Assembly: GCA_030704615.1 (NCBI GenBank)
Contig: CM060733.1
Span: 39,494,001 to 39,558,000, forward strand
Source of the DNA: Takakia lepidozioides
Lineage: Eukaryota; Plantae; Bryophyta
Reading direction: 5' to 3'
Length of the DNA: 64,000 nucleotides
Shown: positions 14,401-47,600 of the stretch, piece after piece
Layout: the number at the start of each line of letters is the position of its first letter
Numbering within the stretch: the stretch's first letter is position 1
Made by a program: the position numbers and the translations under genes
The notes under the pieces: generated by a model
The model's input: the letters and a program-made list of their open reading frames with translations, nothing else
The model's database searches: none
What the model was told of the DNA's origin: nothing

Positions 14401-14617
14401 CCCCTGCATTCATGGGGCAGAAGGCAACACATTCTGTACCGTTTCGAGAAAACCTTGCAAATCCTGCAGCTACGGAGCTGAAGGCGACGCATTCCGTAAC
14501 CCTTTCAGAAAATTTCGCAATCCCTGCACCCGTGGGGATGCAAGACACAGACACAACGTGGGTTCTCTGCCATATCCCTAGAACCTGGAAGCTGTGAAGA
14601 CCAGCGAGAAATTGCAT
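11472..14617 (-). CDS. rsmH: Ribosomal RNA small subunit methyltransferase H (RsmH/MraW), organelle-targeted, 5 exons
   Basis: Approximate exons: 14246-14617 ([21 protein letters not shown]), 13150-13410 ([19 protein letters not shown]), 12675-12743 ([17 protein letters not shown]), 12252-12450 (DYGEER) and 11472-11953 ([40 protein letters not shown]). GT-AG introns. Confidence 0.95.
12046..12117 (+). pseudogene. Degenerate tRNA-derived sequence (Pol III A/B boxes) in the last RsmH intron
   Basis: A box TAGCTCAGTGG with D-stem GCTC/GAGC, stem CCCCA/TGGGG and B box GGTTCAATCC. The acceptor stem does not pair and the anticodon loop is 6 nt. Confidence 0.75.
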
Positions 14618-15490
14618 CCTTGACAAGCGCTCGCTCCTCTTTCTTGTAAGTAGGCACTGAAAGAGCGCACAATTGTGCTGGATGTGGGTAATGGCATAGT
14701 AGAATATTATTTATATTCGTGAAATATACTCAAAACATTCCGCATGCTCGAAACTCTGTTGACGTGCGACAGGATTCTGGAGCTCCTCGGAGACATTCCC
14801 TCAACAAAAATGTTTCGAGACTCTGTATCATGACTTGCTGCTTTTACGTACATCATCAGGAAGTATGCTTGCCCGCGTGTTTTACTCACTTTCATGCACT
14901 GACTTTTGAATATGAGAGAGGGCGGAATGTGGACGAACTGCGATTAGTTGGATAATGTCACAATGCGTGTGCCTCACTTAGCCATGTCCTGTTTCTGTAT
15001 TTTGAACTGACATGAGCACTTGACCTTGGACAATTCTTGTTTTCAATGACATCCATGCAGGGGCTCATTGTGGACACGAGCAGATATGCTCATAACAACG
15101 AGAAGTAAAGACAACAAAGGGACGAGCCCTTGATAGGAATCTGCATTTATGGATTGGAAAGTAAGAAATACTCCCTGCTGGAAATCTCTAAGTAGTTGCT
15201 AATGGACTAAGCCATCAACTACCTGAACAGTATACTGTTAAACACAAAGGGGTTCACGCTTCACGCCTTCATGGGTTTCCCATCATGTTGATAGCCACAA
15301 ACATATATGCAACTGGCTAGTGAAGGCAATCTCTATGTCGCAACCAATGCCTTGCACATGGAGAGATTTCCCCATGAGCCAACCTTCTGGAGGTGAATTA
15401 ACTCCACAACAACCTGCACAGGACGAGGAAAAAATGTCAGTCTGAAAAAAAATGCCAAACGTAGTTCACATGTACTCTTCCAAGTTCTAC
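14463..15490. repeat. Copy A of a direct duplication (copy B at 40023-40860)
   Basis: Colinear matches such as GCTGAAGGCGACGCATTCC, GAAATTGCATCCTTGACAAGCGCTCG, CCTGAACAGTATACTGTTAAACACAAAGGGGTTCA and CAACAACCTGCACAGGA. Confidence 0.95.
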
Positions 15491-20207: not shown

Positions 20208-21150
20208 ATGCCTCTTCGTGCTCGTCAAATTCGGATTCGTGTGTTGTCTCCAATCCTTACTATATACGTTCATAATAAGCATAGTGGACATCGTCCCGGG
20301 TCTGAGGGTGACAAGTTTTTTCTACCGGTGCATCCTAATGTGATTGCTTTTGCAATGGAGAATTTGACTCGAATGGTATCAACTTCAACGGTTGCGCTTG
20401 CAAGTACGAGGGAGGACCAAAACATTCAAGCTATGGTTTCCGAGTTGGAGCGTGCTACATACCGGTTTTTCCTCATTCCTAAAAAAGTGGAGCAATTGGC
20501 TTATTCAATGCGGTTGAATGGTAAATTTCTCGCTCAAATGATTTGTTTATACCTACGTAATAATTGATATTTTGATCGAGTATCGCATGTTTATAATGGA
20601 TGTTTATAATGTGGATTGTGGTAAATGCATTGTGTGCCGACGATTGGGATGCCGCTCAAGTAGAAGTATTTAGACTTCAACAACAAAAGAAGGTTATTTT
20701 TTATCAACCTTATTGTCCCACTCATCGCAACCCAAGGAAAAGGCCATTTGTTGCGGTTATACAAGACGATTTCATGACGACTAATGCTAGAAGATTTTTT
20801 AGTGGACAATCATGGGCATTTGATTCTACTTTCAAAACAAATCAATATGACCTTCCATTGTATGCCACCGTTGTCCCAAATCAAACGGGTCGTGGCATGC
20901 CAATGTTTTATATGCTATGTTCCAAAGACAAAGATAGCGGACAAGAAGGGACGGCGATAGAACTTGCCTTAAAAAGTGTGTTTTCCAATATTGGGATCGT
21001 GAGACCTTCAGCCATTGTCATAGACAAATGCAAGACAAGTGTCGATTCCATTAATGCGGTTGTGGGGGCTGATCCATACTGTTGGAAAAATGGGATTATT
21101 GGCAAAGAACAAGTTGCGGGGAGAGTACTCTTATGTCGTTTTCATGTCAT
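20208..21150 (+). pseudogene. MULE transposase fragment
   Basis: HNKHSGH, PFVAVIQ, WAFDSTFKTNQYDLPLY, SAIVID and VLLCRFHV. It stops before the third catalytic residue. Confidence 0.82.
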
Positions 21151-21239
21151 TTGCACTGATCTCCTCGTTATGGATTTCAGGTCAAAAACAAAATCTGGGT
21201 TATGGCCTATTTGCTCACCTGACCTTAGAACTTAAAACA

Positions 21240-22599: not shown

Positions 22600-25500
22600 C
22601 ATCTTTTCAAATTTTGAAATGGCAAATCTGAAGAAAGAGAATGGACGTTGGGATATGTGTCACGTCGTCACATACACTGCCACCCCAATGGAGGGTTTTG
22701 CTACCCTCATCGTGCATTTCCTAGTAGAGCAATTCTCTCCATGCGTTTCTAGCTTGCCCACATGAATTGACAGCATTCCATTATACATGCCCAGAATATG
22801 AGTGCAAAAAGGCGCGTGTGAGGATACGACAGCGAAAGAAGACATCAGCAAACTCAGTAAGCATGTAAGCATGGCTGAAGAGGTTGAGCATGGCAAGATT
22901 TTGCCCCACCTTCTTTCTAATCTGCAAAGTCAGCTACAGATACCAAAGACAGGTACTTTCACACACCATGACTTGCAATGGAGGTCCCAATGGCACGGAC
23001 AGATACCTGATGAGAACACAGCTGAAATTGCATATATTCCTTAGAATCGGGTGGCGGACTTCATTGTTGGTGAGTCCTCCCAGAAGGAAGCCCCATGCAC
23101 GTTCCGCACTCATCAATAGAAAGACACCCCTGCTGGGATTCTCCAGGCACCACACATCAATAGTGCCATGAACATTACAAGGTATGAATTCATCTTGAGC
23201 ATGCCATGATTCATGAAAAATGAAATGAATGCTGCCACTACACAGGTTCTGTCCAATCCCACTAGCCATGCACTTATGCTTTTCATAAGAGCGGTTCTAA
23301 AAGGCCACTCATGTTTTTGGCGTAGGTATCACTGCGCCTATGGCCCACAAGACAATACCCTGAACATTGTGGAGGTAACAGAGGCTATGCGTGCGAAGAA
23401 ATGGCGTGCGGGTCCACCAAAGAAAAGGGGGAGAAAGCCTACAGTGGGGCCAGCATCCATAGGAAAAAAACCTAAACAAAAAAGGACTACAAACAACAAA
23501 ACAGGAGAAGGCATCAAAAGATGATGCATGTGCCGATTTGCTGTCAAGCAATGCTACATGGACCCTGCTATGGCAGAGATCATTTATTATGAGAAACAAC
23601 ATATAAATGGAAGAGGTCAGATATGCCACGGACCTTCATGTCACTTGAACCGATGTGCAATGGCTCCCCATCTTAGCGATGACATGAAATCATGGATTTT
23701 GCACAATTTGCGTCTTGGGCTGAGCATAAACAAGATAATGGCCAAGCACACCATGCAAGTGAAGGAGTTGATGGAGCAAGGGCTGGACGTCAGCCATGAC
23801 ACTTTTTTCCTCTCCCATGACATACGGAATATTGTGAAGCTATGCGATGAAGAGACATTCAAAAAACACCCAAATGATGCACATAGTGTCCGCATGTGGG
23901 TGCATGAAAATATGGCTAGTGTTTTCTACTACCAAGAAGAAAAGAACCACAAGGCTTGGACATCCAGTGACATCAAACTTGATCTTCCATTCGTTCTTGG
24001 CATACAGATAGTGTGGCAGCGAGATCAAATGTTGAAATTTGGCCATCACCGAATTGTCGCATGCGACGCCACCTTCAAAACTAATGAGAAGAAAATGGGA
24101 TCTATCTTTTTACTTCATTGCAATCGTTGAAGCAAGGTTTAAGGTATACTTGTCATACTGCATCCCCACATCGTACAAATCTCATACTCACTGCTTTCTC
24201 CATACAAATCTGCCTCAATTGTTGTACATTGATTGTTGTTTATGTAGTACCCGCTATACACCATGATGGTATTCGACGAGTGGTTGAATGGAATCCCAGT
24301 TGCATTCATCATTACAGCAAGATCAAAGGCAATCGATTTGGAGCCATGGATGTCCACACTGAACGGGAAGCTTCAGGCTCACCAGGCAAGATGGTGCCCA
24401 TATGCTTTCATTGTTGATGATGCAAATGCTGAAATAAAAGCAATCAGGTGAATCCCGATTCGCAACTCTCTGGAATTTTTTGGTTTTCTGCAAATATCCA
24501 CATTATAATGTTGTCACATGTCTTTCTATGTCAAGGCCGTGTGGGGGCAATCTGCAGTTTTTCTATGCCTTTGGCATGTGAGAAGAGCATGGCAAAAGAA
24601 TGTCGTGTCTAAGATCAAAGATGCAGATTTGTGTGCATGTGTCATGCAAGATATGTCAAAAATCATGTATAGTGCTGCAAAAAGCGAGGGTGACGCAGGT
24701 GAAGCATGGGCAGTGTGCGAACTTGTGAATTTGCGTTTCAAGTACCCCACTGTAAGTGAATTTTGTGACTACTTGGAACAGGAGTGGGTTCCTAAAGCTA
24801 AGATGTGGACAATGGGTTCTCGCAACATTCCACACGCAGGACAAGACACAAACGCCGCCATTGAAGCTTATCATGGCAATTTGAAGGCATAACTGAAATG
24901 CACAAAAAACAAACTGGTCAGCAGACGAGTCGATTGGCTCATTCATGAACTCACAGGTGATTTGCTTACTCATTACTGGTATATGTCGTATGCCAAAACA
25001 TATGGCTTCATCCGCAACAAGCGACTTGAAGGCTTTGTGTGCAGCTCTATTTTGCTTGCCAAACAGATTCCCGATTGCAATGTGAACCTTCCGTAGACAG
25101 AAAGGGGCATCGCCACTATCAAATGTATTTGGGATGAGGGGACTACCTATACGGTTCACAATCCACAGTCCAACTTGGGATGTTGCGATTGTCGTCATGC
25201 CCGCAAAGGTAATATGTGTGCGCATCAGGTGAAGGTGTTGCAAATGTTGCACCCCAACTTAGAAGGATGGCACCATAGCTAAATTCTATGGAAGCCTTAT
25301 TGGGAGCAGTAGAGGTGGCCTTCATAGTTTGTTTGCAACACCTCAATCACCAGCTGACATGCCTTCCAAAGCACCCATGTGTCCTACCCAAAACGCATCA
25401 CCATATTCCGCCCAGAAAAATCCATAGAATTACTGCCACTAATATCCAATGAGTTTGAGCGGGTTCTAGACATGACAAGACATAATAGGGTCTTGCAGCA

Positions 25501-25735: not shown

Positions 25736-26416
25736 TGCACATGGAGGTGGGGGGTGGGGAGTTTATCATGCTCCTAGTGTGCAATACCTTGTTTGTTATT
25801 TGACCACAATGACATTGGTCCCAACATTTGCAATCCTACTGTTTCCATGACGTGCCATGCTTCATGTATATGTTTCGTTCTCAATGATGTGATTTTGTCT
25901 TCCGAAATTGTGTGGATATGCAGGCTACAATTACTATACATATATGAAGTGGTTAGTGCCGAATCATGAAGGCATGTTGATATGAAATTGCATGGATTCT
26001 GGACTGTGTTTGGTGTTAATTTTGCATGTCATGGCATGTGTTTTTCCCACAGGGTGTTGCATTCATTTCAAAATATGTGTCGTCCTTCAATGACAAGGTT
26101 TGTAGCATGACTCCCTATCAGACTTTGCATGTCATGCCTCCTCCCGTGAGTGCAAGTATGATGGTATCCATATCAGGGATAACTGCATAAGCACTTCAAA
26201 TATTACTTCGTCATTCCTGATTTTCACACCACCTACCTCATGCACGGATGTGACCACACCTTCCAATTGCACGTATCATTCATGCGCCACCCACCTCATG
26301 TTGTTGAAGAGAAGGTCGGTAGAACTCATCAATAGGCACTGTTAGCAGTAGAGCACCACGAATTGCATACTCTGTTATCATGTCTGGAGCATGCAGGTTT
26401 CCATTTATGTCCTCGG

Positions 26417-28100
26417 TGAAACCTCACTTGGGACATGGGGATGGGTTTTCCCCTTGTGAGTGTTGAAGAGGGCTCATCTTCTTGTAGTTGAGCCTCTATG
26501 AGCCTCTCCCACCTCCATAGCTATAGGTATTGAGAGGGAGTGTGGTGAGGGCTTTGTAGGGTGGATTCATTTAGCAAAGGTGCCATTGGCTTGACTTAGT
26601 TTATGTGATCGAGTGGATTCATGAGTGGATTGTTTCCATTGTGTGTTCACTTCCATTATCACTACACGAAGATCATCTTATTCTTCTGAGTGCGGAGTGT
26701 AAGGATTAGTTTTAGCACTTGTGTTGGTGTACACCAAGGAGTGAGAGAGCTAAGAAAGCTCAAGTATCTCACAAGGCTTGCAAGGTGTTGCAAGGAGGAG
26801 TGTTTTTGCATTGCATCAAAGAGGTGGAGAGCTCAAGGAGAGAGCTCTTGGGTTACAAGACTTCGCAGAGGTAGAGAGCTTAAGGAGAGAGCTCTTGTAT
26901 CACAAAGCTTGCATGGTTTTGCAAGGTAAGTGCTTGTATGTGCACTAAGGGTTTGAGAGCTTGGAAAAAAGCTCTTGCATCACAAGAGAAGCGTCTTGTG
27001 TGTGGAGAAGAGAAACACTAGGGTTTCAAGAGCAAGCTCTAGTACTTGTTCATGGTGTGAAAGAGAAGCCAAAAAGCAGCACACGCTTGGGTTAGAAACA
27101 CCATAGAAGGAGTACAACAAGGGTAGCTTGAGGAGCATTGAGTAGCTCAAGAGAAGCTAAAAAGTGGTTGTTTTATCCATGGTGAAATGAAGCCAAGTGA
27201 GGTTTCATTTGGTTGACAAACAAGCAAGCGAAGGCGGCGCTAGAAGAGAGTGCTTTTGCTAGTTCTATGAGTTCTTGGATTGCTCTTGGTGAAGCAAGTG
27301 ATTGACCAAGCAAGTGGCGCATGTGTGGAGCATGCTTTCCAAGTGTGGCTTCCAATTCAAGCTTGAGGAGAGCTAGAAGGTGAAGTGAGCAAGTTCATTC
27401 CTTGTGTATGAGGTGGTGCATGTTGTGGAAGAAAAGCCAAGGAGCTACATAGGCTAGGGCTTGAAGACAACAAAAGCAACCACTTGGAGAGCATCAAGAA
27501 GCTCAAGATGACTCCAAATAGAAGCATGTGGGTGAGAATTTTATCCATGATGATGTGAAACCAAGCCTAGAGTATTGAAGAGCTTGGAGCACATGTGGGA
27601 GATCATTGGAGGTGGTCTTCATGAAGAAAAGATATTGTGGCTCACGGCATGCATAGCAACTTCAACCATACATTAGCATGTGACAAGACAAGGAAGGGGA
27701 AGGTGAAGCTCATGCATTCATTCCCTTTTTGCTTAAGTTTTGTGGTGGATGGTTGATCAAGCAAGTGATGCTTATGTGGAGCATGCTCTTTAGGGCTTGT
27801 GACTTCAAGTTTGAGAAGATGAGCTCTTGAATAGAGGTGTGGATACACATTATGATGAATGAAGAAAACACCTAGGTCAAGAGATGGAAGTGTGTGTGAC
27901 TAGCCCATGCAAGGGAAAGCACATGGAAGATGGCATACAAAATTCAAATTCAAGCAAGGCTTGACGCTTGTCATTGGGCACATTAGCTTGCTATGAGTTC
28001 CAAGGAGATCAAGAGGAACTTGTCAATTTGGGATGAATGCATTGCAAACTAAGATAATGCAATCTTGCGTGCATGTTAGGGGGGAAGATACCATGAAGAA
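26417..28100 (+). mobile_element. Degenerate non-coding LTR retroelement remnant; its first ~180 bp recur at 36288-36469
   Basis: AAACCTCA(C/T)TTGGGACATGGGGATGGG...GGCTTGACTTA occurs twice, with internal duplications and a purine tract AGGGGGGAAGA at ~28078. Confidence 0.55.
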
Positions 28101-28149
28101 GGTGTTTCTTACTATACTCTACAAACCCTAGTCTCCATACTCTTCAAAA

Positions 28150-28330
28150 AACTGTGTATGGGATCCCTCTGCCCATCATACACTTTTGTGAAAAGAGTAT
28201 GGAACCCCTCTGCCCAACATACACTTTTGTGAACAGAGTATGGGCCCCCTGTGCCCAACATACGTTTTTGTGCACAGAGTATGGGCTCCCTCTGCCCCAC
28301 CATACTCTTTTGTGAACAGTGTATGGATAC
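28150..28330. repeat. ~41-bp tandem repeat, about 4 copies
   Basis: Unit is approximately GAGTATGG.CCCCTCTGCCCAACATACACTTTTGTGAACA. Confidence 0.85.
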
Positions 28331-29642
28331 AAGTGGAGAGACTTTGCCTGCCATACGTTTTCATTAAAAGTGTATGATATCTAGGGTGTATCTGGAGGAG
28401 TATTGCCTTTGGAGGATCTTTGGGGGGTCCTTTGAGGAGCTTTTGTAAGACACTTGAAGAGCTCTTGAAGGGGTGTTTGGAGGACTGTTTGGAGGACTAT
28501 TGGGGGTCCTTGAAAACCAATATTTGGCAAACATTTGGAGCCTTTGGAGGGCTATTTGGAGGACTATTTTGGGGTCCATGGAGGCTAATATTTGGCGAGC
28601 TTAAGGAATCTCTGGCAACTTGTCTGAAGGACTTTTTGGGGTCCTTGAGGGCCAAGATTTGGCAGGCTTTGGGGGCCTTGGTGAGATTGTTTGAGAGACA
28701 TCTTGAGGGCTCTTGGAGAGTTATTTGAGAGACCCTGGAAGGTAGTTATGTCTGTTGGTCATGAGCAAGAGCGTTTAGAGATAGGGGGAGACGAGTGGGA
28801 TGAGAGCATTCTGGGATTATGAATTGCTTTAGTCTCTCTTCCTCGTAGTCTTCCACCCTCTATGTAGGCCAAAACCTTTCCGTAGGTGGAGGCAAGAGTC
28901 AATCCGGGTTTGGGCTGGGGTGTCTTTGCAGGAGCGACACTGTGGAGTGTTTTTTTCGGTGTGGGGGAGTTACTGTCTTGATTTTCTTGTGTTTGGATCC
29001 CCCCCACACCTGCATGCTTGACTGTGCGCCATGTCAGTTTTGTGTGGGCGTTTGTTTTCATAGGAGGTTGGTCCGGATTTGATCACCGGCCAATCCTAGA
29101 GCATGCTGTCAGTACTGAGGCTGGGGTGATGATCAGTCAGACCACCATTGTTTCTCTTATGGTAAGGCTGGGTTAATGACCAGCAGACCATATGAGTGCT
29201 TGCGGTGGATGTAGGTGCAGGTTTATGTTACGAACCTAGTAGTCTAAGCCATAAGCTGCAACAGGTTCTCTACCCGGTTACCTTGTGGAAAGGGGGATTA
29301 GAAACAAGTTTACAACAGGTGTGGTTGTGAGTTTTCATCACGGAGGTGCCACCAGTTGCTGAGGAGAGTGCTGTTACAAGCACCAGCGATACTAGTGGGT
29401 ATACAAGACGAGGTGTGCGGTTTAGGCCACCTTCACCTTCAGTGTCTTCTGAGGAAGGTTCAGACTCAGAGTTAGGAGGATTCTCGCCGAGGGTGCAAGC
29501 CATTTCCGTGCCATTGTTGTGGGATACGATGGAGGAAATGTATGGAGCTACCAAGGGCCACGTCGGTACTCTAGAGCTGTGGGCACCATCAAGCTTGATG
29601 ATTTCATACAAGAGTTTGATAGTTGGTGTGATTTGCAGCTTT

Positions 29643-30420
29643 TGAACACCCAATCCTCCAGGGTATATCATGTGGCCCAGATACTCAATCTGGTTGTGGA
29701 AGAACTTGCACTTCCCAGGGTGCAATTTCAACCCATGCACTCTCAAACGCTCAAACAGCACCTGAAGGTGTCTCTCATGCTCCTCAACCGTAGCACTAAA
29801 GACGATGATGTCATCAATGTAACACCGGGAAAAGTCTAGCCCCGCGAGAATCCTATCCATAACCCTCTGAAACTCTGCAGGAGCATTCTTCAACCCAAAC
29901 GGTAGGAAGCGCCATTGGTAAAAGCAATCCTTCCCATGTTGGTCAATCCCCCAGAATGCCGTCTTTTGCTTGTCAGCCTCTTTGATTGGCAACTGGTAGT
30001 AACCGGATCGCAAGTCCAATGTACTAAACACCTTCGCATGCCCAATGGCATCAAAGATTTCCTCTGGAGTTGGCATGACATATCTATCGGACTTAGTCTG
30101 GCGGTTCACAGGACAATAGTCCCCACACATCCTTCGTTCTGTCCAATTGCCATAGATATCCTTATTAGCTGGCATCACCGTTGCCGAGGCATACTCCCCG
30201 CCTGACAACTCCACCAATCCAGCTTTGAACAACTCCATAGTCCGTGACTGGATCAATGACCTCTCCATGTCACTATACCTGTAGGGCCTTCGAAAGATTG
30301 GCATGTCACTTGCCAAATCAATACAAATCTCCTGACCCTTCAAACTCCCCAAATCCTTCAAACAGAAGGCAAAGCAATTTCTATAATCCCTTAGAAATCG
30401 CTGGATCCTCTGTCTCTCTC
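29643..30420 (-). pseudogene. Reverse transcriptase (inverted segment, cut at its C-terminus)
   Basis: RRPYR, RMCGDY, FSTLDLRSGYYQ, KTAF, LPFGLKNAPAEFQR, YIDDIIV and KCKF..IEYLGH. Confidence 0.95.
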
Positions 30421-30829
30421 CTCCGGTGACTGTAGGTCCAACATCTGGTTCCCAATTGTCCTCAGTGACTGCAACCTCTTGGGCATTGTCCGCCCAATCT
30501 GACTGTGGCGTAGCCTCCACTTGCTCTGCCATAACCACCTTGAGAACATCCTCTGGGGAAGAAACATTCTCAACCTCTTCAAAAACATTGGCCACCTTGG
30601 CCTCCAACTGATCCTCAGTGTATGGCTCTCCCCACTCCTTATATTGCTGCTTGAGAAATCCAATGACTCTCTCTTTCCGCATCTCATTCCACATCTGCCA
30701 TGGGTGTTTGCACCCCATGATCATGTGCTCGCCCCCACTCACTGCCTCAACCGTCCCGATTGGGGGATACAATACCAAATGGGAGTGCAGAAGTAGCCAC
30801 CACTGTCTGCAACCTCCGTTGCTCAGCCA

Positions 30830-31030
30830 TGCATAAGCCAATGACCCATGTCAAGCAATTTAGATCCATTGCTTGACCCAACACATGTCGGCGTGATGCC
30901 TCTGACAGAGCTGGCACAGCTGTAGTGCCCGTGGCAAATCCCATTGCCCGCTCTCGCTCATCTGCATTGGGCACAAACAAATCCCTGAGTCAGGTGGTTG
31001 CCAGGTAATGGGCACTGTATCCAAAGGAGC
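30830..31030 (-). pseudogene. Relic of a cytosine-5 DNA methyltransferase domain (C-terminal motifs IX-X plus an N-terminal stub)
   Basis: PNADERERAMGFATGTT..LSEASRRHVLGQAMD matches the E..R..GFP..T....R...LGNA/S pattern of C5-MTase C-termini. It is joined out of frame to PLDTVPITWQPPDSGICL. Confidence 0.72.
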
Positions 31031-31339
31031 TAACTGAGGAAGTCCAGGTGATGTCACTGAACTCCCCTCACTCACCTATGGATATGCCTCCTGCCATGTT
31101 TGGTGCACACACTCGCCTGCTATTCGATGCAAATTCCTAATTGTACCCCATAGTGGAATATGAACAGACACATGAGGAAGCAAATCAGCCTTGTATGCCA
31201 ATTGTTTGTCCTCATCAGGTGGTGGTCTATCATCTGCATGGCTATTGCCCTCCAAGAGCTCACCACCCCAAGCCACCACCCCTGAGAATGCAGCCAATGT
31301 GGGCATCATGTTCCTATGATCCATCGCTACATTCCCAAT

Positions 31340-31780
31340 AAACCGCACTGGGAGCAGTGCACGTCGACCATCCCCTGACTGCCATTCCGGCCTGTAGGAT
31401 GCCGTTTCCTCCCAAAAGTCCAAAGTAAAGCCCATCGGGTATAACACAGCCCCACCAACAAGCACATCATAAGACATCGCGTCCGTAACAATGGCTTTAG
31501 CTCTCATGACAAAGCCATCTGTAGGATGATCTAACTGCAATTGAATGAAGAGCTCATGGCGTCTAAACCGCCCAAAGATGTTTGAATTTGGAAAGGACAA
31601 GGCTCCAAATCCGCCTCTGTAAGGCCCAAGCCTGCAATTGCTGCTCTCCCCAACATCAATGGCTGTGCTCCCGAGTCCAACAAGACCCGCAGTGGCCTAT
31701 ATATCCTCCCGGCTTGGCCACCCAACTGAAACACACTATCTTGATTGTCCACTAGGACTACCCCAGGAGTCACTATACGA
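31340..31780 (-). pseudogene. Retroviral-type aspartic protease (inverted segment)
   Basis: RVLLDSGAQPLMLG ... YDVLVG, split by a frameshift. Confidence 0.8.
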
Positions 31781-31899
31781 CGCTCAATGGCTGGTCTAGC
31801 TGACAACTCCTGCAACTTTGCAGCTGCCGCTTGCCATGGCGCAGCTGTGGCTATTTTTACCCTTGAATCCAAGGCATCCATGCACTGCACCTGATCCGC

Positions 31900-33575
31900 T
31901 ATCCCCGTAGTAGTGCCGATGCATCACCACTCTCACAGAGTGCAGCTGCCAGTCTAAACACTGCATCCCCGACATTGCAATTGTCGTGGCAGAAAACAAA
32001 GGAGCTTGGCAAATTGTCGTAGCCGCCCCCAACAATGTATTGGCTGCACCTTGCTTTGCAGTACCACCCACTGGCATTTCCCGAGCCATACCAACTCTCC
32101 CCGATGACACTCGTGGCTCTATTTTTGACACACTTGGGCGAGCGGGTGCCATCGATGGCATAGTTGGCACTGTCTCAGCCAATGTGAAAGACTGTGGAAG
32201 CCTTTTCTGCCGACTTGCTTCCCCTCTTTGTGGATCAAAATCCACATCCGCTCCTCTTGGCTCAGGAGCACGCGTTGCTGCTTGAGTGACAGCAGCTGCA
32301 GAGTCCACACGCAATGGTCCTGCAAGTGCGGCTCCACGCATGAAGCCCATACCAATCTGGTCTTCTCTAGGCATAAGAGGTTGTGCAAGTGGGGCTTGAA
32401 CTTCAAGCCTTAGAGCTGGCGCAACATGAGTAGTGGCCATGGCAGCAAAACGTTGCTCTAGCTGGGCAAGTCTATCCACCATGCCTTGGTCATGACCTTG
32501 ACCCTGACCCTGTGCTCCTTGGTTTTGGTTATGTCCTCCACCCCAACCTCTACCTCCTCTACCTCTCTGGACTACATTGCCTTGTCCTCGGCCACCATTG
32601 CTCCCTTGGAACTGGCCTGGCCGTAGCTCAGGATGTAAGTCATAACAATGGGCCTCTTCATGCCCATACTTGCCACAATGCCCACATTGTAGTTGTGTAG
32701 GCTGTGCCTGTTTCCGAGCAATCTCCGGGCATCATTTTGCCTCTTTCCGGACAATCTCTCTTAACATGGGGTCCTCCACAATCCCAGCATGTCACACCCG
32801 ACTGTTGTTGGCCTGAGAATGAAGGATGACCTCTGCAATTGAGATCCTCTCGGCCCTTCCCTGGGCTTCGCCTGAGCCCCCTTGTTGCCTTGAGCACGTT
32901 GGGGTAGTGGTTGTTGTTGGCTAGGAGCCCCACTTCATTGTGTCTCCTGACCAAACCCCACCATGACCACTCGCTCCTCCACCATATTGAGCTCTATCCG
33001 CTCTGCCAGCAAAAACACATTTGCTAAGGTGGGTTGGTCCACTTGTAGGAGAGTTGCATCCCACACCCTTCTCCTCAGCTCCTTGTCCAGGATCCCATAC
33101 CAGAACTGGACTCCCTGGGCTTCTATAACCCCTTGGATTACGTTTATCAAGCGCCTCATGCGAGTGTAAGCCTCCCTCAAACTCTCGGCAGGCTTTCGTT
33201 GGAACTCTTGCAAACTCCGCAATTTCTCCGTCCTTATCCCCTGGTAGTTTCTCCTTAACTCCTCGAAGAACTCCACAACTGGGTTAAAGGCAGGCACGGG
33301 TATTGGTGCTGCAGCAGGAGCTTGGGTGGACTTCCCAGCTCCTGTTCCACTTGACGTCCCACTGCTGCTTGCAGAAGCTGCCGGTGTAGCTACCGGTGTA
33401 GCTACCGGTGTCACCAGTGCCCCTTGTGCCTCTAGTGATGGAGACATAGTCAGGTGACCAATACACCCGCCATTCCTCAATCTCCACCTCATGTCCCCGC
33501 CTAAACTCATGGTAGTCATCCATGGGCGGCCCCTCAAGGTGCTGAAACAGCCCCTTCCACGCCATAAAAGGCGGC
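31900..33575 (-). pseudogene. gag (inverted segment) with zinc knuckle
   Basis: WKGLFQHLEGPPMDDY, LQEFQRKPAESLREAYTRM and CWDCGGPHVKRDC; frameshifts present. Confidence 0.8.
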
Positions 33576-35821
33576 CATTGCACGCATTCCACGCCCGATA
33601 GATGTTAGCAGAGTTCGTGCTTTTATGGGGTTGACAAACTACTATCGACGGTTTGTCAAGGCATTTAGCAGCATTGCAAAGGCTCTTACTAAGTTTGACT
33701 AAGGTGGGTCAAGAGTGGCAGTGGGAGGAGCAGGAGGAAGCCTTTGAGGAACTCAAGGCTCGATTGACTTCTGCACCTATTCTGAGGCGGCCTATTCGGG
33801 GGCGGTCTTTCCAACTACATACGGATTGGAGTATGCTGGGGATTGGAGCAGTGCTCACACAGATGGATGATGAGGGAAGAGAGTTCGTAGTGGCATATGC
33901 TAGCCGCTCAAACAATGATGCCGAGACAAAGTATAGTTCCTATGAAGGGGAGTGTCTAGCTGCGGTATGGGTAGTGACACATTTCAGATGCTACCTCTAT
34001 GACAATCTCTTCACCCTTATCACGGATTACCAACCATTGAAGTGGTTGATGGAGTCAGACAAGCTTACAGTGAAGCTTGCACGGTGGGCAATTATGCTTC
34101 AAGAATACGACTTTCAGGTGGTGCATCGAGCTGGTATTGTCAATCGGGATGCAGATGGATTGATTCGTAATCCATACACGAGCAAGCATGATGATACTGG
34201 AGCTCGGTGGCATGGTGAGACGGATGAGGAGATGGTGCCAGGATGGCATGCATCTGCCTTTTTGTGCATCCTAGCAATGAGAGCTCAAGCTGGTCCATCC
34301 CATAGCATTGGTCATGTAGATGGTGTGCATGACGATCCGGAGATCAATGAGGAGCTTGGTGGTGCTAAGGATGTGCATGAAAATGCAGCAGTGTTGGCCT
34401 ACCTTCGTACTAGAGAGACAGCAGCCAATGTGACTGATAAGGAGAGAGATCGGATCCTACAACAAGCCAAGAGGTTGAAGTGGGAGAGGACTCACCTACT
34501 CCGAGTATGGGAGGATGGACAAGTGAGGATTGTGTCTCATCCAACACAACGAGCATGATTGGTACGCCATGCCCATGAGGAGTTGGGACATTTTGGGATG
34601 CGGCGCACTCATAGTTTGCTGCAATGACAGTATTGGTGGTGGGGCATGCACACGGATGTGCAACAGTTAGTGGCAAGGTGCATGGTGTGTGATAGAGTGC
34701 GAGCTTCTTTCAATGCACCTACTCCACAATTGCATCCTTTACCCATTATGGGTTTGGGCTATCGTTGGAGTCTTGACTTCGCAGGCCTATTGCCACTAAC
34801 GATTCGCCATAACAAGTATGTGCTGGTGATGGTGGAACATTTATCCAAGTGGATTGAACTGGTGGCATTGCCTGACAAGGCAAGTGAGGGGGCTGCGTAT
34901 GCATTCTTAGATCGAGTGCTTAGCCAATTTGGTGCTCCAGCCGAGGTACTCACGGACCAGGGGAGAGAGTTCTTGGGGGAGTTTCAGGCTTTGTGTGAGC
35001 AAGCCTTGATAGATCACCGCACTACTTCTCGGGATCATCCCGAGGCTGATGGCCTGGCAGAGAGGGTTGTACAAACAGTCAAGCGAGGCTTGCGCAAGTA
35101 TGGCTTGCAGAAGGGACACTTAGGAGATTGGGACCTTCAGCTACCTTGGTTGGCCATGGGCTACAGGTTTAGCAAACAAGCATCACTTGCCTCGTTCTCG
35201 CCTTATTTCCTTCTCTTTGGCCGAGAGCCAGATTTGCCTGCATCTATTCGCAGGGAGACTGCAGTAGTTCTCAACCTTGATGATCCGGATGTGTGGACAC
35301 AATCATGTGCCCAGCGGGCAGAGTTGTTCAAGAGAGTCATGCCTATGGCTTTTGAGAACCTTGCTATTGCCCAACATTGAGACACATTGAGGTACGCCAC
35401 TACACGTGGAAGGGGATATCGGCCAGGTGTTCGGCGTTTCCACCCTGGGGACTATGTGTATTTGCAGCAGACAGCGCCTACGACTTTGGATGTCACAGTA
35501 GGGCGTGTGATTCTAAGGGTCCGGGAGGTGTTGCCTTCAGGAGTGTTGATTCTGGAGGGTCGAGATGGCATGGTATGGAAGGACCATGTGCGCAATTGTG
35601 CGCCATGTCACCTTCCACATGTGGATGAGATGATAGATTCCAACCTTGCAGTGGTACCTGCAGGGTTGCGTTGCATGCTATGTGGGCATGCTGGTGGTGC
35701 CGCGACCATGTTGGTGTGTGACAAATGCTCAAGGGGGTGGCACATGGGATGCTTGACACCGCCACTTGAGGAGGTTCATAGTGGAGAATGGTTGTGTCCA
35801 CGATGCCTTGGACATAGGTAG
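33576..35821 (+). pseudogene. RT connection/RNase H, integrase and C-terminal PHD finger; several stops
   Basis: RAFMGLTNYYRRFV, LHTDWS, YSSYEGECLA, HEELGH..CMVC, SLDF, TDQGREF, DGLAER and C4HC3 PHD CMLC..CDKC..H..C..WLCPRC. Confidence 0.93.
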
Positions 35822-36474
35822 TGGGCATGACAAAGGTGGAATTGACAAGTGATCCAAGGTCTAGCTGATGGGAGCTCAACGCCATGGATACTTAATTGAA
35901 GATCATGGATTGCAGGAAGGCGAGTAACGATGGGGCTACTTTTGCACCCGGCCTCTTGATCTATTGACTTTAGATACTGGGACATGTGCGATTGAAGACC
36001 AAGCGATGATTTTATTGAGATGGATACTTGTCAGCTATCCGATGTTAGAGGGACCTAATCACCAGCTAGGGGGGCGATTGTGGCATAGCTTTCTAGGATT
36101 GTGTGCTTAAAATGTATGGTGGACAACGATGTATGTTGTGGCACGATGCTTAGGTGCACGACAGCTGTCATGGTTTTAGTCATGGTTAACTAGAATTACC
36201 TACTTCTAGTTAACTAGGACATTTTGGATATTTATATTTGTATTTTGTGTGTTGGGACTTCATTTGATCTCACATGCCAAGTGAGGTGTCAAACCTCATT
36301 TGGGACATGGGGATGGGTTTTTCCCTTGTGAGTGTTGAGGAGGGCTCATCTTCTTGTAGTTGAGCCTCTATGAGCCTCTCCCACCTCCATAGCTCTAGGT
36401 ATTGAGAGGGAGTGCGGTGAGGGCTTTGTAGGGTGGATTCCTTTAGCAAAGGTGCCCTTGGCTTGACTTAAGAT

Positions 36475-36790
36475 AACATGGATACAATGATATGAATGTG
36501 CTGAATGGGATGAATGGTGACGGCGCAATATGGATGAAATATAGATAGGGTTGAAATGGATGGGATGAATGGTGACGTCAAATATGGATGATAACATGGA
36601 TATGATTCATCTGAATGATGAATGGGATGAAGAGTGACGACAAAATATGGATGAAAGATGGATAGGGTTGAAATGGATGGGATGAATGGGATGAATGGTG
36701 ACGACAAAATATCGGATGATAACATGCATAGGATTCCTATGCATTTCCAGAATGGGATGAATGGTGACGGCCTGGATACGGGATGATAAT
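36475..36790. repeat. Degenerate satellite (GGATGAATGGTGACG core), with an inverted copy at ~37300-37405
   Basis: Read directly from the sequence. Confidence 0.8.
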
Positions 36791-38199
36791 ATGCATAGGG
36801 TTGATATGGATGAAAGGTTTTAGGGTTCCTCTTCTCATTCACGTTGCATTGTATGCATGTCCCTGTTTCCCCCTGTTTCCCCCTGCATGTCCCTGTTTCC
36901 ATGGCTGAAATGCGTGTGAGCAGGCGTCTATCAGCCAGCCTTCGAGGTGGCCACTCTACCACTACGTAGGATGCACATGGAACAATGTAATGTACATGGT
37001 TTCAGGATGTTTGAGGCAAATTATGTCATGTATCCCGGCTATTTTTGCAATGTGGTTGCATGTGCCAAAGTCTGCAAGGCAGTATCCATTGTTGAGGCTT
37101 ATGACAAGCATGGAATTGGGGTATTTGCAACATGACTAGTGTAGAAGTCATGTATGTGGCAATTGCTTCTGATATGTAGGTTGTCGTGCACCTAAGCATC
37201 GTGCCACAACATACATCGCTGTCCACCATACATTCTAAGCACAGATAATGGAAGTGAGCACACAATGGAAACACTCCACTTATAAATCCACTCAATCACA
37301 TAACATCCGTATTCGACGTCACCATTCATTCTATTCATCCCATCCATTCCAACCTTATCCATGTTTCATCCATATTTCGTCGTCACCATTCATCCCATTC
37401 ATCCCGTGAGAAGAAAACTGTGGATGCACTGCATGAAGTGAAGAACTGTTGTGGGCACTCTATAGGGTAAGGGCATCCACCACTGTGTAAGGGCATTCAC
37501 CATTCCACCAGGGTAAGGCCCCGATGTGAAAGATAACAACGCTCAGTACCATCCCATGTTACATACCACTTCTTTTCACTAGACCTAGGAAGATTATGAG
37601 TATGCACTTATAATGAAGGAACACATGAAAGCAAGATTTTCATGAGTTACAACAGATTTGGCCTCCTCAGTTCTGTTTGCAGACTGCCATGTGCCAACCT
37701 ACATACATTGATTGGCTCATTCATAAAACTTTACTTTGTAGAGTGAAAAAATAGAGTGTACATCATAATGCTCACAAATGTTGTAGACAACTTCCTAAAG
37801 GGGCAAAGAAGGCGGCCACCAACACCCTTGACATGAAGGGGATCATGCTACAGTCTCATGTCCCTGCATGGAAGTCCTCTCCCCTCTACTGTGGTCTTTC
37901 TTGTGTGCATTCGCCAGCATGCGGGTCTTGTGGCATAGCCATGGAATACATCCGGGACGGGCTCATCTTTCACGACATAGTATGGTTGGCCATGGCAGAC
38001 GCTCTACACTTCGAGTGAAACAATATGGCATATTTCCCTCTTCTTCATGACAGCCTCATTCACCGGAAACCAATGCTTGTTCAGTTGCAGAAACAAACCT
38101 AGTGGACAAGGGTACCGTTTACTGAAAAGTAATGAGCATGTGATTAAGTGCAAGCCAGTAAGAAAGAGAACAAATGCAGTGAAAAGTGAGGAACGTACC

Positions 38200-40022: not shown

Positions 40023-40860
40023 CCTGTAGCTACGGGGCTGAAGGCGACGCATTCCATAACCCTTTCAGAAAATTTCGCAATGCTTGCACCCGTTAGGATG
40101 CAAGACGCAAACACAACGTGGGTTCTTTGCCATATCCCTAGAACCTGGCAGCTGTCAAGGCCGGCGAGAAATTGCATCCTTGACAAGCGCTCGTTTGTCT
40201 TTCTTGTGGGCAGTAAAAAAGCGTATCATAAGGAAATATGCTCATTTGTTTTTCTCACTTTCATGCACTGGTTTTGAATATGAGGGAGGGCAGAATGTGG
40301 ACGAACTACACGGAGTTGCATAAGTGTCACAATGCTGTGAGCCTCACCCAGCCATGTTCTGCTTCTGTATTTTGGACCAACATGAGCACTTGACCTCGGA
40401 CAATTCTTGTTTTCAATGACATCCAAGCAGGGGATCTTCGTCGACACAAGAGCAGATATGCTCATAACAAAGAGGAATAAAGACAACCTAGGGACGAGGC
40501 CTTGATTGGCATCTGCATTTATGGATTGGAAAGTAAGAACTACTCCCTGCTGGAAATCTCTAGTTGCTAATGGACTAAGCCAGCAACTACCTGAACAGTA
40601 TACTGTTAAACACAAAGGGGTTCATGCCTTCATGGGTTTCCCATCGTGTTGATAGCCACAAACATATATGCAACTGGCTAGTGAAGGCAATCTCTGTATG
40701 TCCTGTAACCAATGCTTTGCACGTGGAGAGGATTCCCCATGAGCCAACCTTCTGGAGGTGAATTAACTCCACAACAACCTGCACAGGATGAGGAAAAAAT
40801 GTCACTCTGTGAAAATAATGCCAGCAGTGGTTCACATGTACTCTTCCAAATTCTCAAAAC
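40023..40860. repeat. Copy B of the duplication, including a truncated RsmH 5' coding piece (~40023-40177, minus strand)
   Basis: [22 protein letters not shown]...ECVAFSPVATG followed by a stop at the junction. Lacks about 200 bp present in copy A. Confidence 0.92.
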
Positions 40861-41672: not shown

Positions 41673-44600
41673 TCACAAATGGTTCTGTGTCAGCTTAATC
41701 TCTGGCAACTTTAGCAAGGGCTTCAACTGCTCCATTACGTCTGCAAATGATGGTCGTAGTCTTACATCACTGCACACAGTTCATACACCAGCAATGAAAT
41801 GAGCATGTGTCCACTACCAATAGCATAGTAGCCAGGTAGGCCCATCCGCAAGATATCCAACATATCAAGGGCACCAGCCTTTCAAGGTCTGGGTGAATCC
41901 AGGCTGAGATATCTAGGGCTTGGGATACAATGGCCACCTCTAGAGATCCCCACTCTTACCATGTAAGAGAGTTACACTCACACAGATAGCCTAGGCAAAT
42001 GATCATTGTGGGTGCCACCGGGCCAACCCACCTTCCCTCAAAACCCGCCACCCACCACCCAGCCGATAGTAGGGTAGCATTCCCAGCACCAGTCGGGACA
42101 ACCACCCTGTCAGAAGGAGGAACTTCCTTGACCCTGACGCTAAAGAATTCTCACCTTCATTGCTTCAAGTTAGACTAAGATCAATAACCTTACATGGCGG
42201 GAACGGATTTGCAATGACAGTACAGAACATCCCCAGAGGGAAAAATCCTTTCTAGTTTCTCACCAAGGGTTCTAAAGCAGTTCCCAAGCACAATACTGGA
42301 GGGACTCCAGTCCTACAAAGCAAACAGAGCAACCATAGTAGATCCATACTTGGTCCATAGTGGTATAGACCTCTCACAGGAACAACTAGCCCATGGCAAC
42401 AAGAAGATGGCAGGAAAAGAAGCTCACTGCCTCAACAGGGACTGCGGCATAGCAAGGAGCTGAAGTGAAGTTATCTCACAGCGGCATCATACAATGCAGG
42501 CACAGCACTTGCCCAATACCAAGACGCTCCCATAACCGTCATTCTACCTACTAGCTACTATCTGTGCTGGCGACCTGGCGACCTGGTGGCTTATGCATGC
42601 TGCATCCTCTTAAAGGTCAGCTGGGTTTTTAGGGTAAGCAGGGTGGCAAGTGGTTTGCAACCCACATGTGCTTTTGGGCAAGAGAGAGAGAGAGACATAC
42701 TTCGACCAACAAGACTCAATCATCACAGCCAACTCAGAATTGAGATCCTTCGGAATTTGGAGTCGCCTGTTTTGAAATCCTACTGCACCCACAACCTGTG
42801 ACAAATAACTGGCAAGTTTAAATCTCTTGTTTTAGCTCTCACTGTCATAATTTTCAATAGCCAAAATAGATATCCAGTTACTTTCCAGGATCGTTCCAGT
42901 GATGGTACCATCACAGCTCTAATTATAAGCCAAAACAGAAACGAATGACAAAGCTGGAACCTCCAGTATGTAAACTGTCATTGCTCTTGAAGGGGGCCAC
43001 CAGATATCCAAGGCAGGGCATGATATTGCTGAATGTAAGATGAGGTGATCTACAGAGTGATCTGAAATTTCAGTGCCAATGCAGTGAGTGACCTTGCAAC
43101 TACATGGAGAGACCACTCAACTCTGAAAAGAAACTGCTCTGAGCTAAGAAGTTTCAATATCCAAAACAACATGGAAAGACCAACCCCATTCGGTTGCTAG
43201 CCATGGTTAGGGAAAAGGTGCCAAGAAAACCCACCTGCACAGGGCTCAGGCCAATCCAGGGCTTCTGAAGGGTAATAAGCTCCCACAGCACTACCCCAAA
43301 ACTGTAGATATCTGCCTTTTCGTTGCATGGCTCATCACGTAGAACTTCAGGTGCCATCCATTCGGGCTACAAAAAGTCACCAGGTGCACATATCAAATGG
43401 GAGTCTTCCAGTTGGAACTCGTTCTCAATTATGCAACAATTTTGGTATCAAATTAAACCTAAGGACAGGGGTTTGTTCAATCCTGCATAACAGGGGGGTT
43501 GCTGCACAAGTTCTATAGGTGTAATCTCCAGTCCAGTCTCACTACAATTTTGAAGTTTTGCAGATCTTCTTGTAGATAAGATTGTCAGACACAGTTACTT
43601 TGATTGATGAGATTCAACCACCTGGAACGGAAGGTTCTTGAAATATTTACACCTTACAAAAGATTTACTGAAAATCAATTAGAGTGGCAAAGAGCAGCAA
43701 GCAGGATGACATCTCAGCCAATCCAGAGCTTATCCAAGTCACAAATTCATATGAACCACCTAAGAAGTCCAGAGTAAAACTATCTACTTTCCAGAGCTTT
43801 ACCGTGCCAGCGCCTGATCGCGAGGAAAGGAATGTGTTGCCTTTCAATCTTGACAGACCAAAGTCACAAACCTGCAAGACAATATACAATCATTAGGTAC
43901 CTAGATAACTACCCAACAGAGAGGGGGGCCTTCCCCACAGTGTCTACACCCTACTATTGCATCCTATTCAAATGATATAGCCTTCCAAGAAACTCCAAAA
44001 CGACCATAAAACATGACACATTAAGTCACTGAACGAATATCCAACAAAACTATACGAATTGTATGCTATACAAGTACTACAGACATGAACAATCTGCAAA
44101 AAAATGAGTGTCATAGACAAACAAGTGGTACTATTCTTAAATGGGTTCAGGGAAGTTGTGCATAAAGACTCCTCATAACACGTAAACCAACCTTCACGGT
44201 CCAGGCCTTGTCAACAAGCAGGTTTGGGGACTTCAGGTCTCGATGCACAATCGGCGGATTGCTTCGGTGTAGATAATTCATTCCCTTGGCCTGGAAACAT
44301 CAATGATTTAGGAGCCTTGAGACAAGATCAAGTGATATTACCATACCTCTCAGATAGAATATCTTACACGTGTAAGGCTTGTAGCTCCCAAAGGAAGCCT
44401 TAGAAAATGTGGATATGTTACTTGACACAGAGATAGAGGCTAATTTGCACAATTATCAGCCAATTGATAACTTATCGTGAAGCCTAAAAATACATCATTA
44501 ACAATGATATGACAGAAACCTGTTAGGCAGTGATACTGCACATTTCCCAAGGAAGTTGTTGCGATACTGCACCACTAATTGCTTAAGGGACCAACCAAAG

Positions 44601-47600
44601 GAAATCGATTGTTGTTTCTAGATCAAGGATCTTCATGGAATAGAGGAAGACATACCACATCAAGAGCCATACGAATTCGACGTCTTATATCCAGCACCTT
44701 TCTTGCTCCTGATCTATGTAGCAGATTGAACAAGCTGCCCCTGAGAGCCACACAAGTAGACAGGACTAGACTTATCAGTTAAGTAAAGGTCCCATTAGTT
44801 AGTGGATAAGCTGACAACAAGAGCCTCACACCATACAAATCAGTTCCAAATGCATATGAAGCTTACCTACAGAAAGAAAGCATTAGGGCAACTGGACAAC
44901 AGACATCGTAGACCTGCCGCCTAGACATATCATATGTGCAAGGGGAATATAGCACTATCACATTCCTAAGTCTTAGTTATAGTGAAAGTGCATCCAAAGT
45001 GATTCCAAATTCTGAACCTCAGGCAAAAATAGACAAACAATTTATGTCGACCTCCAAGAACCAAGTAGGAAAAGACGTGGAGGAAGAGAGAGCAGACTTG
45101 GCCAAGTACTCGGTGACAATTGCAAGATTTGGGTGGGTGACAGCACCCATGAACAGAACCACATTCGGATGCCGAAGCCGTTTCATAATTGCAATCTTCA
45201 CATCCGACACACAACTTTGCATATGAAATTTTCACTTTCCTTTCCCTTTGTGTAAGAGTAAGTTGCCCAAAGATCCTTGACTTCAACACAGCTAAGCACT
45301 GTCTATGCAACCAGCACAACTTCTACATGGCCAACAGATCGAGATATCTGAATTCTATTCATATCTGGGAAGGATGATCCAAGCACTCTGCATCCTGTTT
45401 TATGCACACCCTTGCCCATCCAATCCCACTGGCACAGAATCAGAACATTAGGAACAAGTATGTTATTGGAGCTTTGAAATAGAAGCACAAGAGTAGATTA
45501 TGAGGATGTCAAAACTGCTGCCCACCTCTCTCATGAATTCCCTCAGCTGCTCATCAGGAACCTCTTGCTCCATTATAATCTTCACAGCAACGTCCTGCAA
45601 AGACCATCCACTGTTAGCCACTCAGACCTGCCTCGACCTGGTACAAATAGCAACATCGAAGACATACAGAAGCTAGAGCAGTTATAGTTTCTGTGGAGGG
45701 TACAAATCCCAGACGAAGAGGAGGGGTCTCGCAGACAAAGCAGAGCAGACTCTAATGGCATATATACGGCAGGACACAGCTGTCAATTGCCATAATTAGA
45801 CTGTCTCTGCATTCCTTCCAAAGTTCAGCTGCTAAATAGCCATCAAATGGCATGTTTGTTGTTGGAATCGCAAATGCAGGCCTGCTAGCACTAAGGGCCA
45901 TGGGAGGACAAGGGCTGACAGTGGCCTCCATCTGAAAGTTCCTTCAGCATCAAAATACTCCAATATTTTATATGCTGTGTCATAAGAGACACTTACCGAG
46001 TCCATCCAGTCTGCACGATGCACAATACCAAAGGAGCCTGCATCAAGAGTGTAACAAAGTTTCCCACATACCAAACATGAGTAGCTCAAACAAAGACGTG
46101 CGAAAAGAAGAATTTTTCAGTCACAGGAAGTCCAGAAAGAGAGATATACAGGAAAAGAAGAGTGAACTTTAAGAAATACATCAAATACTTGGTTTAGGGA
46201 CAACCCCTTCGCGACATTTCAAATAAAGCAGATCCTTTAGTTCTTGAGTACATTCCACAAAACTGAATATGTTGGTTTACATACAATACCTGCCCCAATT
46301 CTTTCTCCCAAGATGATGTCTTCCCAGTGAATCTCCCACTCCTCCTCAATTGCCACTGGTTCAGTACTTCCCTTGCTTGACTGTGTCAAAGTATTGCTGC
46401 CACTATCAAGGTGATCCTCAGTGCCCTCTGCAGTGTACACAGGTCTAGCTACCAACCATTGGTTCACTCTATGCTCTTCCCATGGAAATTCCCAATCATC
46501 TGATGGCAATGCCCTTTGCAGGATACGCACCTTACTTAAGTTCCCACCTGTCTCTATCAACTGTTCTTTCAGGCGCCCCTCTCCATCCACCCCCCCACTA
46601 AACACTTTTCCGCTGTCAAGTGAGTTTGGCTCCAGAAGAGGTGATTGTGCCCTACCACCAATTCCCTTGCGTTCAAAACCAGACGAGAAAGTAACATCCT
46701 TCGCCAATTCATGTTCATCAATCCGGCTGGGCCTTACATATTCCTTCATAGCCAGCCCTCGATTTTGGGACACAAACTTTGTGGCTCTGTCTGTTGCTAA
46801 TACCTTATTCTCAACCATTGACTGAGAATTATCGCCCTCCACATCATTACTTTGGGAATCCTTAGCATTCAGATCATCGCTGCTTGCCAAGGTTGCAGGA
46901 GTAGCAAAGGGACTTCTAAGAATGGATTGCCATGTTTGCTCCCCAGATGAGGAAATACTTAGTTCAGCTGCTGAACCTGTTTGAGGGGGAGTTTGAATTG
47001 GCTGCAACCACTGTCTAGTCCTCTCAGCAGCCTTCTTCCGTGCAACTGCACAATGCACAAAACATTAGCAAAGAATACAAGTATGAGAGATACAGCAATA
47101 TATCTTCAAGTCAATGTTTATTTAGCATGATGTGTCCAATATCCGAAGTCTTGCCCTTGTGTGGCCAACCTGACGGGTTATATCCAATGTCTGATTCATT
47201 GCGCTGGGTACTCTCGCCAGAGAGGCACACTGACCAATTCCTACAAGGGATTTGTTTCTATACATCTGTTTAGCAACTTTGAAAATGTAGAGGCTTTGAC
47301 TTGGGTGCCCAGGCCCTTTGCGGGCCGTTCAGAAACCCACACCCGCCGAGGATGTTTTGCACGTAAGACAGAGTCAGCATAAGCCACAGTTCCCTGTGAG
47401 TATTTACCATCCTCAAATTGAGAGTCCATATGTATTGACTCCGAAGAGCCTAGAGCCACAGCTGAAGTTCTGCTCGAGTACTTCTCATTGTCAGCAGCAG
47501 GAACAGGGTTTTGATCCAGAAACCGCAGAGGTGATGAGATCAAGTGAGCCATGGGGCTGGTCAAATAAGTATCTGGCTCACACAGGGCTCCCGGCTCGGA

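Follow-up and report, generated by a model that had tools for sequence, protein, structure and literature searches.

Methyltransferase-carrying retrotransposons

Retrotransposons that carry a DNA methyltransferase (DNMT) have previously been known from dinoflagellates and one charophyte alga, according to the accessible text of the principal report (de Mendoza et al., 2018; PMC5890265). The closest known system is KnitGypsy-Dnmt3 of Klebsormidium nitens, described there as a Gypsy Pol (PR-RT-RH-INT) with an intronless, non-rearranged DNMT3-like domain, A-coding-B-A-B repeats and purifying selection on the DNMT, all of which are shared with the family analyzed here. The DNMT capture was called specific to the K. 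nitens lineage, and the K. nitens enzyme gave no methylation in yeast, a result that the authors call inconclusive (PMC5890265). SymbioDIRS-Dnmt3 of Symbiodinium likewise has a DNMT3 domain within Pol and A-B-A-B repeats; it methylates CG in yeast and is the source of a model, proposed and partly shown for this element, in which the cDNA is methylated (PMC5890265). DIRS elements integrate by means of a tyrosine recombinase, in contrast to the family described here, which possesses a DDE integrase (rve, H2C2 finger) together with a PHD finger.

The element described below is a land-plant variant of this known algal kind. It differs from KnitGypsy-Dnmt3 in that its host is a land plant and in that this copy has no catalytic core. 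The accessible text on KnitGypsy-Dnmt3 (PMC5890265) mentions no PHD finger, readthrough stop, GACA-GC-TGTCA junction, target duplication, second domain order or chlorophyte relatives.

Structure of the copy and of the DNMT relic

The copy lies within a window of 64,000 nt, the whole stretch of DNA that was analyzed, and is oriented overall along the plus strand, interrupted by two inversions. At its 5′ end is a remnant of repeat A1 (26416-26660, plus strand), which has lost its first ∼120 nt and matches 36288-36470 at 96% identity and the inverted 37303-37244 at 92%; the start of A1 has no match elsewhere. The gag gene begins at 29529 in the element's own orientation (29529-29642; 70% identity to residues 3-39 of Marchantia P0039 by tblastn) and is then broken by a 3.9-kb internal inversion (29643-33573), recognized from tblastn and blastn collinearity with relatives, that places the rest of gag, the protease, the DNMT relic and most of the reverse transcriptase on the minus strand. 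This block contains the frameshifted gag body with a CCHC-type zinc knuckle (32645-33573, knuckle at 32686-32645; Retrotrans_gag, E=0.003), an aspartic protease with approximate limits 31400-31750 (LLDSGA at 31683-31666; Asp_protease_2, E=0.008) and the greater part of the reverse transcriptase (29649-30460, YIDD at 29821-29810; RVT_1, E=1.4e-30). The plus-strand order resumes at 33574-35806 with the end of RT and RNase H (33574-34110, HTDWS at 33818-33832; RT_RNaseH, E=2.9e-33), the integrase, comprising H2C2 finger and core and containing stops (approximately 34530-35400; rve, E=6.7e-14), and a C-terminal PHD finger (35672-35806; PF00628, E=9.5e-11).

Between protease and RT, PLDTVPITWQPPDSGICL is read on the minus strand at 31027-30974 and VPNADERERAMGFATGTTAVPALSEASRRHVLGQAMD, in a different frame, from 30974, the latter containing ERERAMGF (30959-30936) and LGQAMDLN (30881-30858); their out-of-frame join gives GGGATTTGTTTGTGCCCAAT. 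The first peptide is a stub ahead of DNMT motif I (30974-31027; PLDTVPITW...GICL) that aligns to LSPLVTTPIAWAYSSEGVCL|LDLFGG of P0039. It is separated by a deletion junction (30972-30974) from a DNMT3-like motif IX-X tail with its last helix (30800-30971), of which the peptide VPNADERERAMGF...LGQAMDLN ends at 30858. Motifs are numbered I-X in the customary usage for C5-methyltransferases. A DNMT-RT linker follows on the same strand (30460-30800), with a frameshift near 30762; the in-frame stop that 28 related loci have here is absent. The preliminary description of this locus had reported both peptides and their out-of-frame junction on the minus strand between protease and RT, and these are present as described; the strand was correct, but it was overlooked that the relic block is inverted and that the element itself runs the other way.

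The same description had read the tail as C5-methyltransferase motifs IX-X, and in this it is borne out by a profile of 20 intact relatives, with which an 80-residue piece holding the relic scores 90 bits (E=1.2e-26), the runner-up among 2095 six-frame pieces of the window being the PLDTV stub itself at 4.5 bits. A phmmer search with the relic against 1.84 billion representatives returned 301 proteins at E≤0.001, and by tblastn the relic is 64% identical to the collinear stretch of P0039. The check that had been proposed, a match of the peptide to PF00145, fails for the relic alone, which hits neither PF00145 nor any other Pfam family and finds no DNMT among PDB sequences at E≤10. From these comparisons, the peptide at 30974-30858 (minus strand) almost certainly represents the motif IX-X tail of a DNMT3-like methyltransferase.

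Relatives and their methyltransferase

Judged by their sequences, the relatives of this copy are Gypsy polyproteins of the order Gag-PR-DNMT-RT-RH-INT-PHD, found in Marchantia, Calypogeia, Sphagnum, Closterium and metagenomes. The existence of such a family had been predicted from the window alone, and PF00145 does lie between PR and RT in the relatives. The RT frame as query returned 898 matches; PF00145 was present in 5 and a PHD finger in 31 of the best 120, all near the top. With the DNMT of Marchantia P0007 as query, 38 proteins were retrieved (16 from Marchantia polymorpha, one each from Calypogeia fissa and Sphagnum fallax, two from Closterium and 18 others), and a chlorophyte relative, Monoraphidium P0217, was found among 30 relatives that were looked up. 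No K. nitens DNMT was among the proteins retrieved by the family DNMT search, and none of 51 pattern matches in viral contigs was confirmed.

The DNMT domain of Calypogeia P0127 matches human DNMT3A/B in sequence and in predicted structure. Its best match is DNMT3A (E=8e-11), followed by DNMT3B/C, DRM (4e-7 to 2e-4) and bacterial enzymes (M.HaeIII/M.HhaI, 4e-4 to 3e-3), and its counterpart of the relic tail, ERERAMGF...VLGQAMD, aligns with motifs IX-X of DNMT3A (EMERVFGF...RLLGRSWS). The AlphaFold model of P0127 has a mean pLDDT of 66, with values mostly of 80-95 across the DNMT, and Foldseek with this model returned only DNMT3A/B/C among the matches listed, with TM scores by target of about 0.8. 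An atlas look-up of P0127 gave further DNMT3 support only.

The family motifs occur in the order I, IV, VI, VIII, IX, X, and motif I was detected in 32 of the 38 proteins, IV with PC in 31, VI in 31, VIII in 34, IX in 27 and X in 29; all six are present in 6 of the 18 named land-plant models. In the relatives, the DNMT3-related domain is intronless and in the polyprotein frame, and its catalytic residues are kept; the window copy retains the stub and motifs IX-X only, the catalytic residues having gone with motifs I-VIII. In the three pairs among L025, L027 and L031, the dN/dS of the core is 0.10-0.12, pairs with L001 having been spoiled by an indel, and for the window tail against relatives it is 0.06-0.15 where not saturated, as compared with 0.4-0.5 between decayed copies within one subfamily. 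At the sequence level, Ka/Ks values below 0.2 in the L025/L027/L031 pairs thus indicate purifying selection on the DNMT core.

In a tree of RT sequences, from which 15 near-duplicate rows were removed, the window copy groups in a supported 19-row clade together with Marchantia, Calypogeia and loci that bear a DNMT; the DNMT tree, likewise without near-duplicates, shows matching groups. The K. nitens RTs P0031, P0033 and P0042 lie outside the 19-row clade, although the deep forks are weak.

A second domain order, RT-RH-DNMT-INT-PHD, occurs in L047, L049, L055, L057, L067, L070, L076, L078, P0217, P0290 and P0292, whose sources are metagenome loci and the chlorophyte Monoraphidium; this group forms one clade in both trees and has the GACA-GC-TGTCA junction described below. 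Two further proteins were encountered. P0399, a 4799-residue ENA protein of a non-LTR-type retroelement, combines OTU, RT and PHD with a PCIF1-like domain, a C5 DNMT of the family type and RNase H; a LINE-like element has possibly captured this DNMT as well. P0342, an RT-INT-PHD protein of the family, is assigned in public databases to an uncultured cyanobacterium, and its contig is probably a misassigned plant or algal one.

Split repeats and insertion

Split repeats in the DIRS-like order A-B-A-B characterize the family, and the GACA-GC-TGTCA junction within them is conserved. The layout is complete in L034, in which A (1679-2017) is followed by the coding region, B, A and B (to 10805); this 9.1-kb element starts with TGTCATG, ends with CGACA and is flanked on both sides by AAGG, a 4-bp target duplication at the only locus with both ends. 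In the window, the arrangement is preserved in truncated and partly inverted form. A polypurine-tract-like word, putatively functional as such, is located at 36064-36076 (plus strand), L001 and L034 having an identical word at the equivalent position, and L025 and L031 a similar one. It precedes repeat B1, the inner junction (36160-36170) and repeat A2, which together occupy 36078-36470 (plus strand). The end of A2 and repeat B2 (37182-37303, minus strand) were reversed by the second inversion (about 36471-37303), which affects the 3′ end of the element; they are 92% identical to 26601-26660 and 97% to 36102-36163, and end in CACGACA. The inner B-A joint was also found in 17 of 80 related loci (one with GT), many of which stop short of it, and it occurs across both domain orders. 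An ordinary LTR pair with target duplication was not found in the window, where the 5′ repeat is cut short.

The Phygy clade of Physcomitrium (Neumann et al., 2019; PMC6317226) also comprises non-chromovirus bryophyte Gypsy elements with 4-bp duplications, and its size range of 7.7-10 kb includes that of L034. By the description available there, the duplications of Phygy elements are NCGN, their primer site corresponds to tRNA-Trp and an extra domain is not listed, in contrast to the AAGG duplication and split repeats of L034. A tRNA-Trp primer site, sought with an 11-mer query, gave 10 matches in comparison with 15 expected, none near the start of the element, the 5′ end of which is damaged. 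Membership of Phygy is possible but unsupported.

Expression and proposed role of the DNMT

In 28 of the related loci, Gag-PR-DNMT and RT-RH-INT-PHD lie in one frame with a stop between them, 16-23 codons ahead of the first conserved Trp of RT. The sequence CAR YYA after a stop is the readthrough signal of TMV, for which UAG-CAR-YYA is given in the accessible text (PMC2754532). Here, CAR follows the stop in 26 of the 28 loci and the full CAR-YYA in five (L012, L025, L027, L031, and L080); 21 of the 26 belong to one Sphagnum-like subfamily that has CAR-CCC rather than CAR-YYA. Unlike the TMV case, the stop follows Gag-PR-DNMT, not Gag, and readthrough is predicted from sequence. It would not be universal, since a stop between DNMT and RT is lacking in the window copy, L062, L064, L065, P0014, P0015, and P0023. 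For the greater part of this branch, we infer that the DNMT would be made at the level of Gag, and RT and integrase by readthrough.

The window holds a dead Gypsy copy whose intact relatives likely make a DNMT with Gag and would methylate their own new DNA, a reading to which a probability of about 0.6 is assigned. Gag-PR-DNMT would be the main product and RT-RH-INT-PHD would come from occasional UAG readthrough, so that the DNMT would be packed in particles at Gag-like amounts. Once cut free by the protease, the DNMT would act de novo on the cDNA ahead of integration, methylating it probably at CG sites; insertion by the integrase would produce a 4-bp duplication and would probably be directed by the PHD finger.

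Depletion of CpG and CHG was considered as a sign of self-methylation and discarded, as there is no difference from host DNA: the CpG observed/expected ratio is 0.42-0.51 in the element, 0.37 in a host gene and 0.50 in a Harbinger element of the same window, and is therefore uninformative on this point. Among the differences listed, the 42 best-supported ones of C-to-T type fall into 27 CHH, 10 CHG and 5 CG contexts, counts that are likewise uninformative because they cover the best-supported differences only.

It is also conceivable, although we consider it rather unlikely, that the family DNMT is kept for another role, such as non-catalytic binding of DNA or RNA, methylation of the target site or host, or damping of the element's own spread. 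Alternatives of this kind are listed by de Mendoza et al. in the portion of their paper available, and would agree with the inactivity of the K. nitens DNMT in yeast (PMC5890265) and with the replacement of PC by EC in motif IV of 2 of the 38 proteins, by the pattern used. Against them, even distant subfamilies retain the catalytic Cys, ENV, RxR and the SAM motif, CG methylation has been shown for DIRS-borne DNMT3s (PMC5890265), and the place of the DNMT in the Gag-PR product would fit action inside the particle. The identity of the relic would be unaffected by such a role.

Deletion, inversions and decay

The distance from the residue matching GICL to the P of PNADE is 801 nt in eight of nine related loci, 798 nt in the other and 2 nt in the window. 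The ∼799 nt gone at 30973 comprise motifs I-VIII and the target-recognition part, beginning right before DLFGG of motif I, as the preliminary description had proposed when it placed the start of a deletion of motifs I-VIII at motif I. Its expectation that sister copies would have extra residues between the two flanks also holds, the ∼801 nt in relatives containing the core, with motifs I, IV, VI and VIII found. Both flanks are present in 67 of 80 related loci and the core in all 67, the 80 being the best of 217 chosen by motif IV/IX patterns and rank, which favors intact copies.

Contigs on 30600-31300 numbered 2278, 1579, 71 and 19 in four sequencing runs of organism A, X1 and X2 being one sample. 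Sister contigs leave the window sequence at 30972/30974 (33/16 contigs in X1, 19/5 in X2, 4/2 in X5, and 1/2 in X7). By eye, a motif-I-like DLFGG follows on one side, and the other side derives from a stretch that lies ahead of EPNADE in Marchantia. Sister copies in organism A therefore appear to continue into the DNMT and, since they diverge on both sides of 30973, most of this apparently high-copy family would not be deleted there. None of the contigs listed bridges 30973, so that this assembly is the only source for the gap. Position 29642 is joined to 33573 across strands in sister contigs (three of X1 and one of X3).

With its gap, 3.9-kb inversion, and stops and frameshifts throughout, the window copy is dead, and the relic itself does nothing. 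The gap and inversions are most likely repair scars that postdate insertion. Their origin as assembly errors in a high-copy repeat, the true locus being unbroken, would account for thousands of contigs on the element with none of those listed across 30973, but is improbable given that the breaks are sharp, with a few filler or lost bases, and that 260 places differ from the X1 sisters (152 with window A/T versus sister G/C and 45 in the reverse direction), which together with the stops and frameshifts is as expected of an old dead copy.

That the deletion instead marks a DNMT-less sub-lineage that kept spreading is more improbable still. In its favor, seven of 59 representative proteins with enough upstream sequence, including Marchantia models, fail to align into the core, although these may be spliced gene models; against it, contigs of sister copies diverge from the window to either side of the junction, and the reading frame is broken there, ahead of RT, in a copy that is also inverted. 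Finally, an ordinary linker or a captured host DRM/DNMT3 piece that merely resembles motifs IX-X would explain why the relic alone has no Pfam or PDB DNMT match, but has a negligible probability and is ruled out by the family profile score, the collinearity with P0039 and the 801-nt versus 2-nt gap; moreover, the motif order is not that of DRM, in which motifs VI-X precede I-V, and DUF3444, given for host plant DNMT3s in the accessible part of PMC6453930, is absent from the family members scanned.

Distribution and implications

The preliminary description had taken the element to be from a land plant, and a CTR1-like gene in the window places the host among seed-free land plants. For land-plant members of the family, the open-access literature searched gave algal reports only. 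The name "KnitGypsy" was met only in PMC5890265, in three supplement files of which a word search found neither Marchantia nor Sphagnum, and five Marchantia gene identifiers were found in no paper. The available text of PMC12344493 mentions retrotransposon DNMT3s in "streptophytes", and its supplementary trees could hold bryophyte rows; accessible parts of PMC11982613, PMC12885004, PMC7466625, PMC8557442, PMC6911290, and PMC9985172 were also covered.

Tentatively, and at somewhat less than even odds, these elements may form an ancient, green-plant-wide clade of split-repeat Gypsy elements, ranging over chlorophytes, charophytes, liverworts, mosses and possibly lycophytes, that acquired a working DNMT3 in a single capture, has retained it ever since and shifted its place in Pol once, with land-plant readthrough loading the particles with a de novo CG methyltransferase. 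If so, Marchantia and other living seed-free plants would harbor high-copy families that set their own DNA methylation without recourse to the host silencing enzymes. With at least 16 gene models in Marchantia, the role of the enzyme is testable by genetics and existing methylomes, and bryophyte DNMT counts and the results from methylation mutants may be confounded by transposon-borne enzymes. The combination of a readthrough-type stop and split repeats with an integrase suggests an expression and replication scheme that was not found in the literature searched.

Other features of the window

The CTR1/EDR1-like Raf kinase gene of the host extends over approximately 42700-49950 on the minus strand, in at least 13 exon pieces with many introns. 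By identity it is nearest to Marchantia paleacea (65-69%); in a gene tree that had no named moss or hornwort row, it is weakly placed beside a lycophyte, outside the fern and Marchantia-Riccia clades. Other mobile elements on the plus strand include an open integrase-SH3-chromodomain frame of a chromovirus-type Gypsy at 166-1659, with little CpG depletion (observed/expected 0.91), and a Harbinger-type transposase at 61819-63105 (DDE_Tnp_4, E=4e-25). Long open frames at 4292-6019, 6224-7315, 20597-21235, and 23525-24130, also on the plus strand, are by eye Mutator/MULE-type transposase-like; the first two gave no clear match to Pfam. Short tandem arrays with units of 41 nt and about 60 nt are present at 28136-28330, 28413-28680, 36470-36812, and 37301-37405, the last two flanking the second inversion. 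Direct repeats of about 0.8 kb at 14463-15488 and 40023-40854 are 88-91% alike and lie 25 kb apart.
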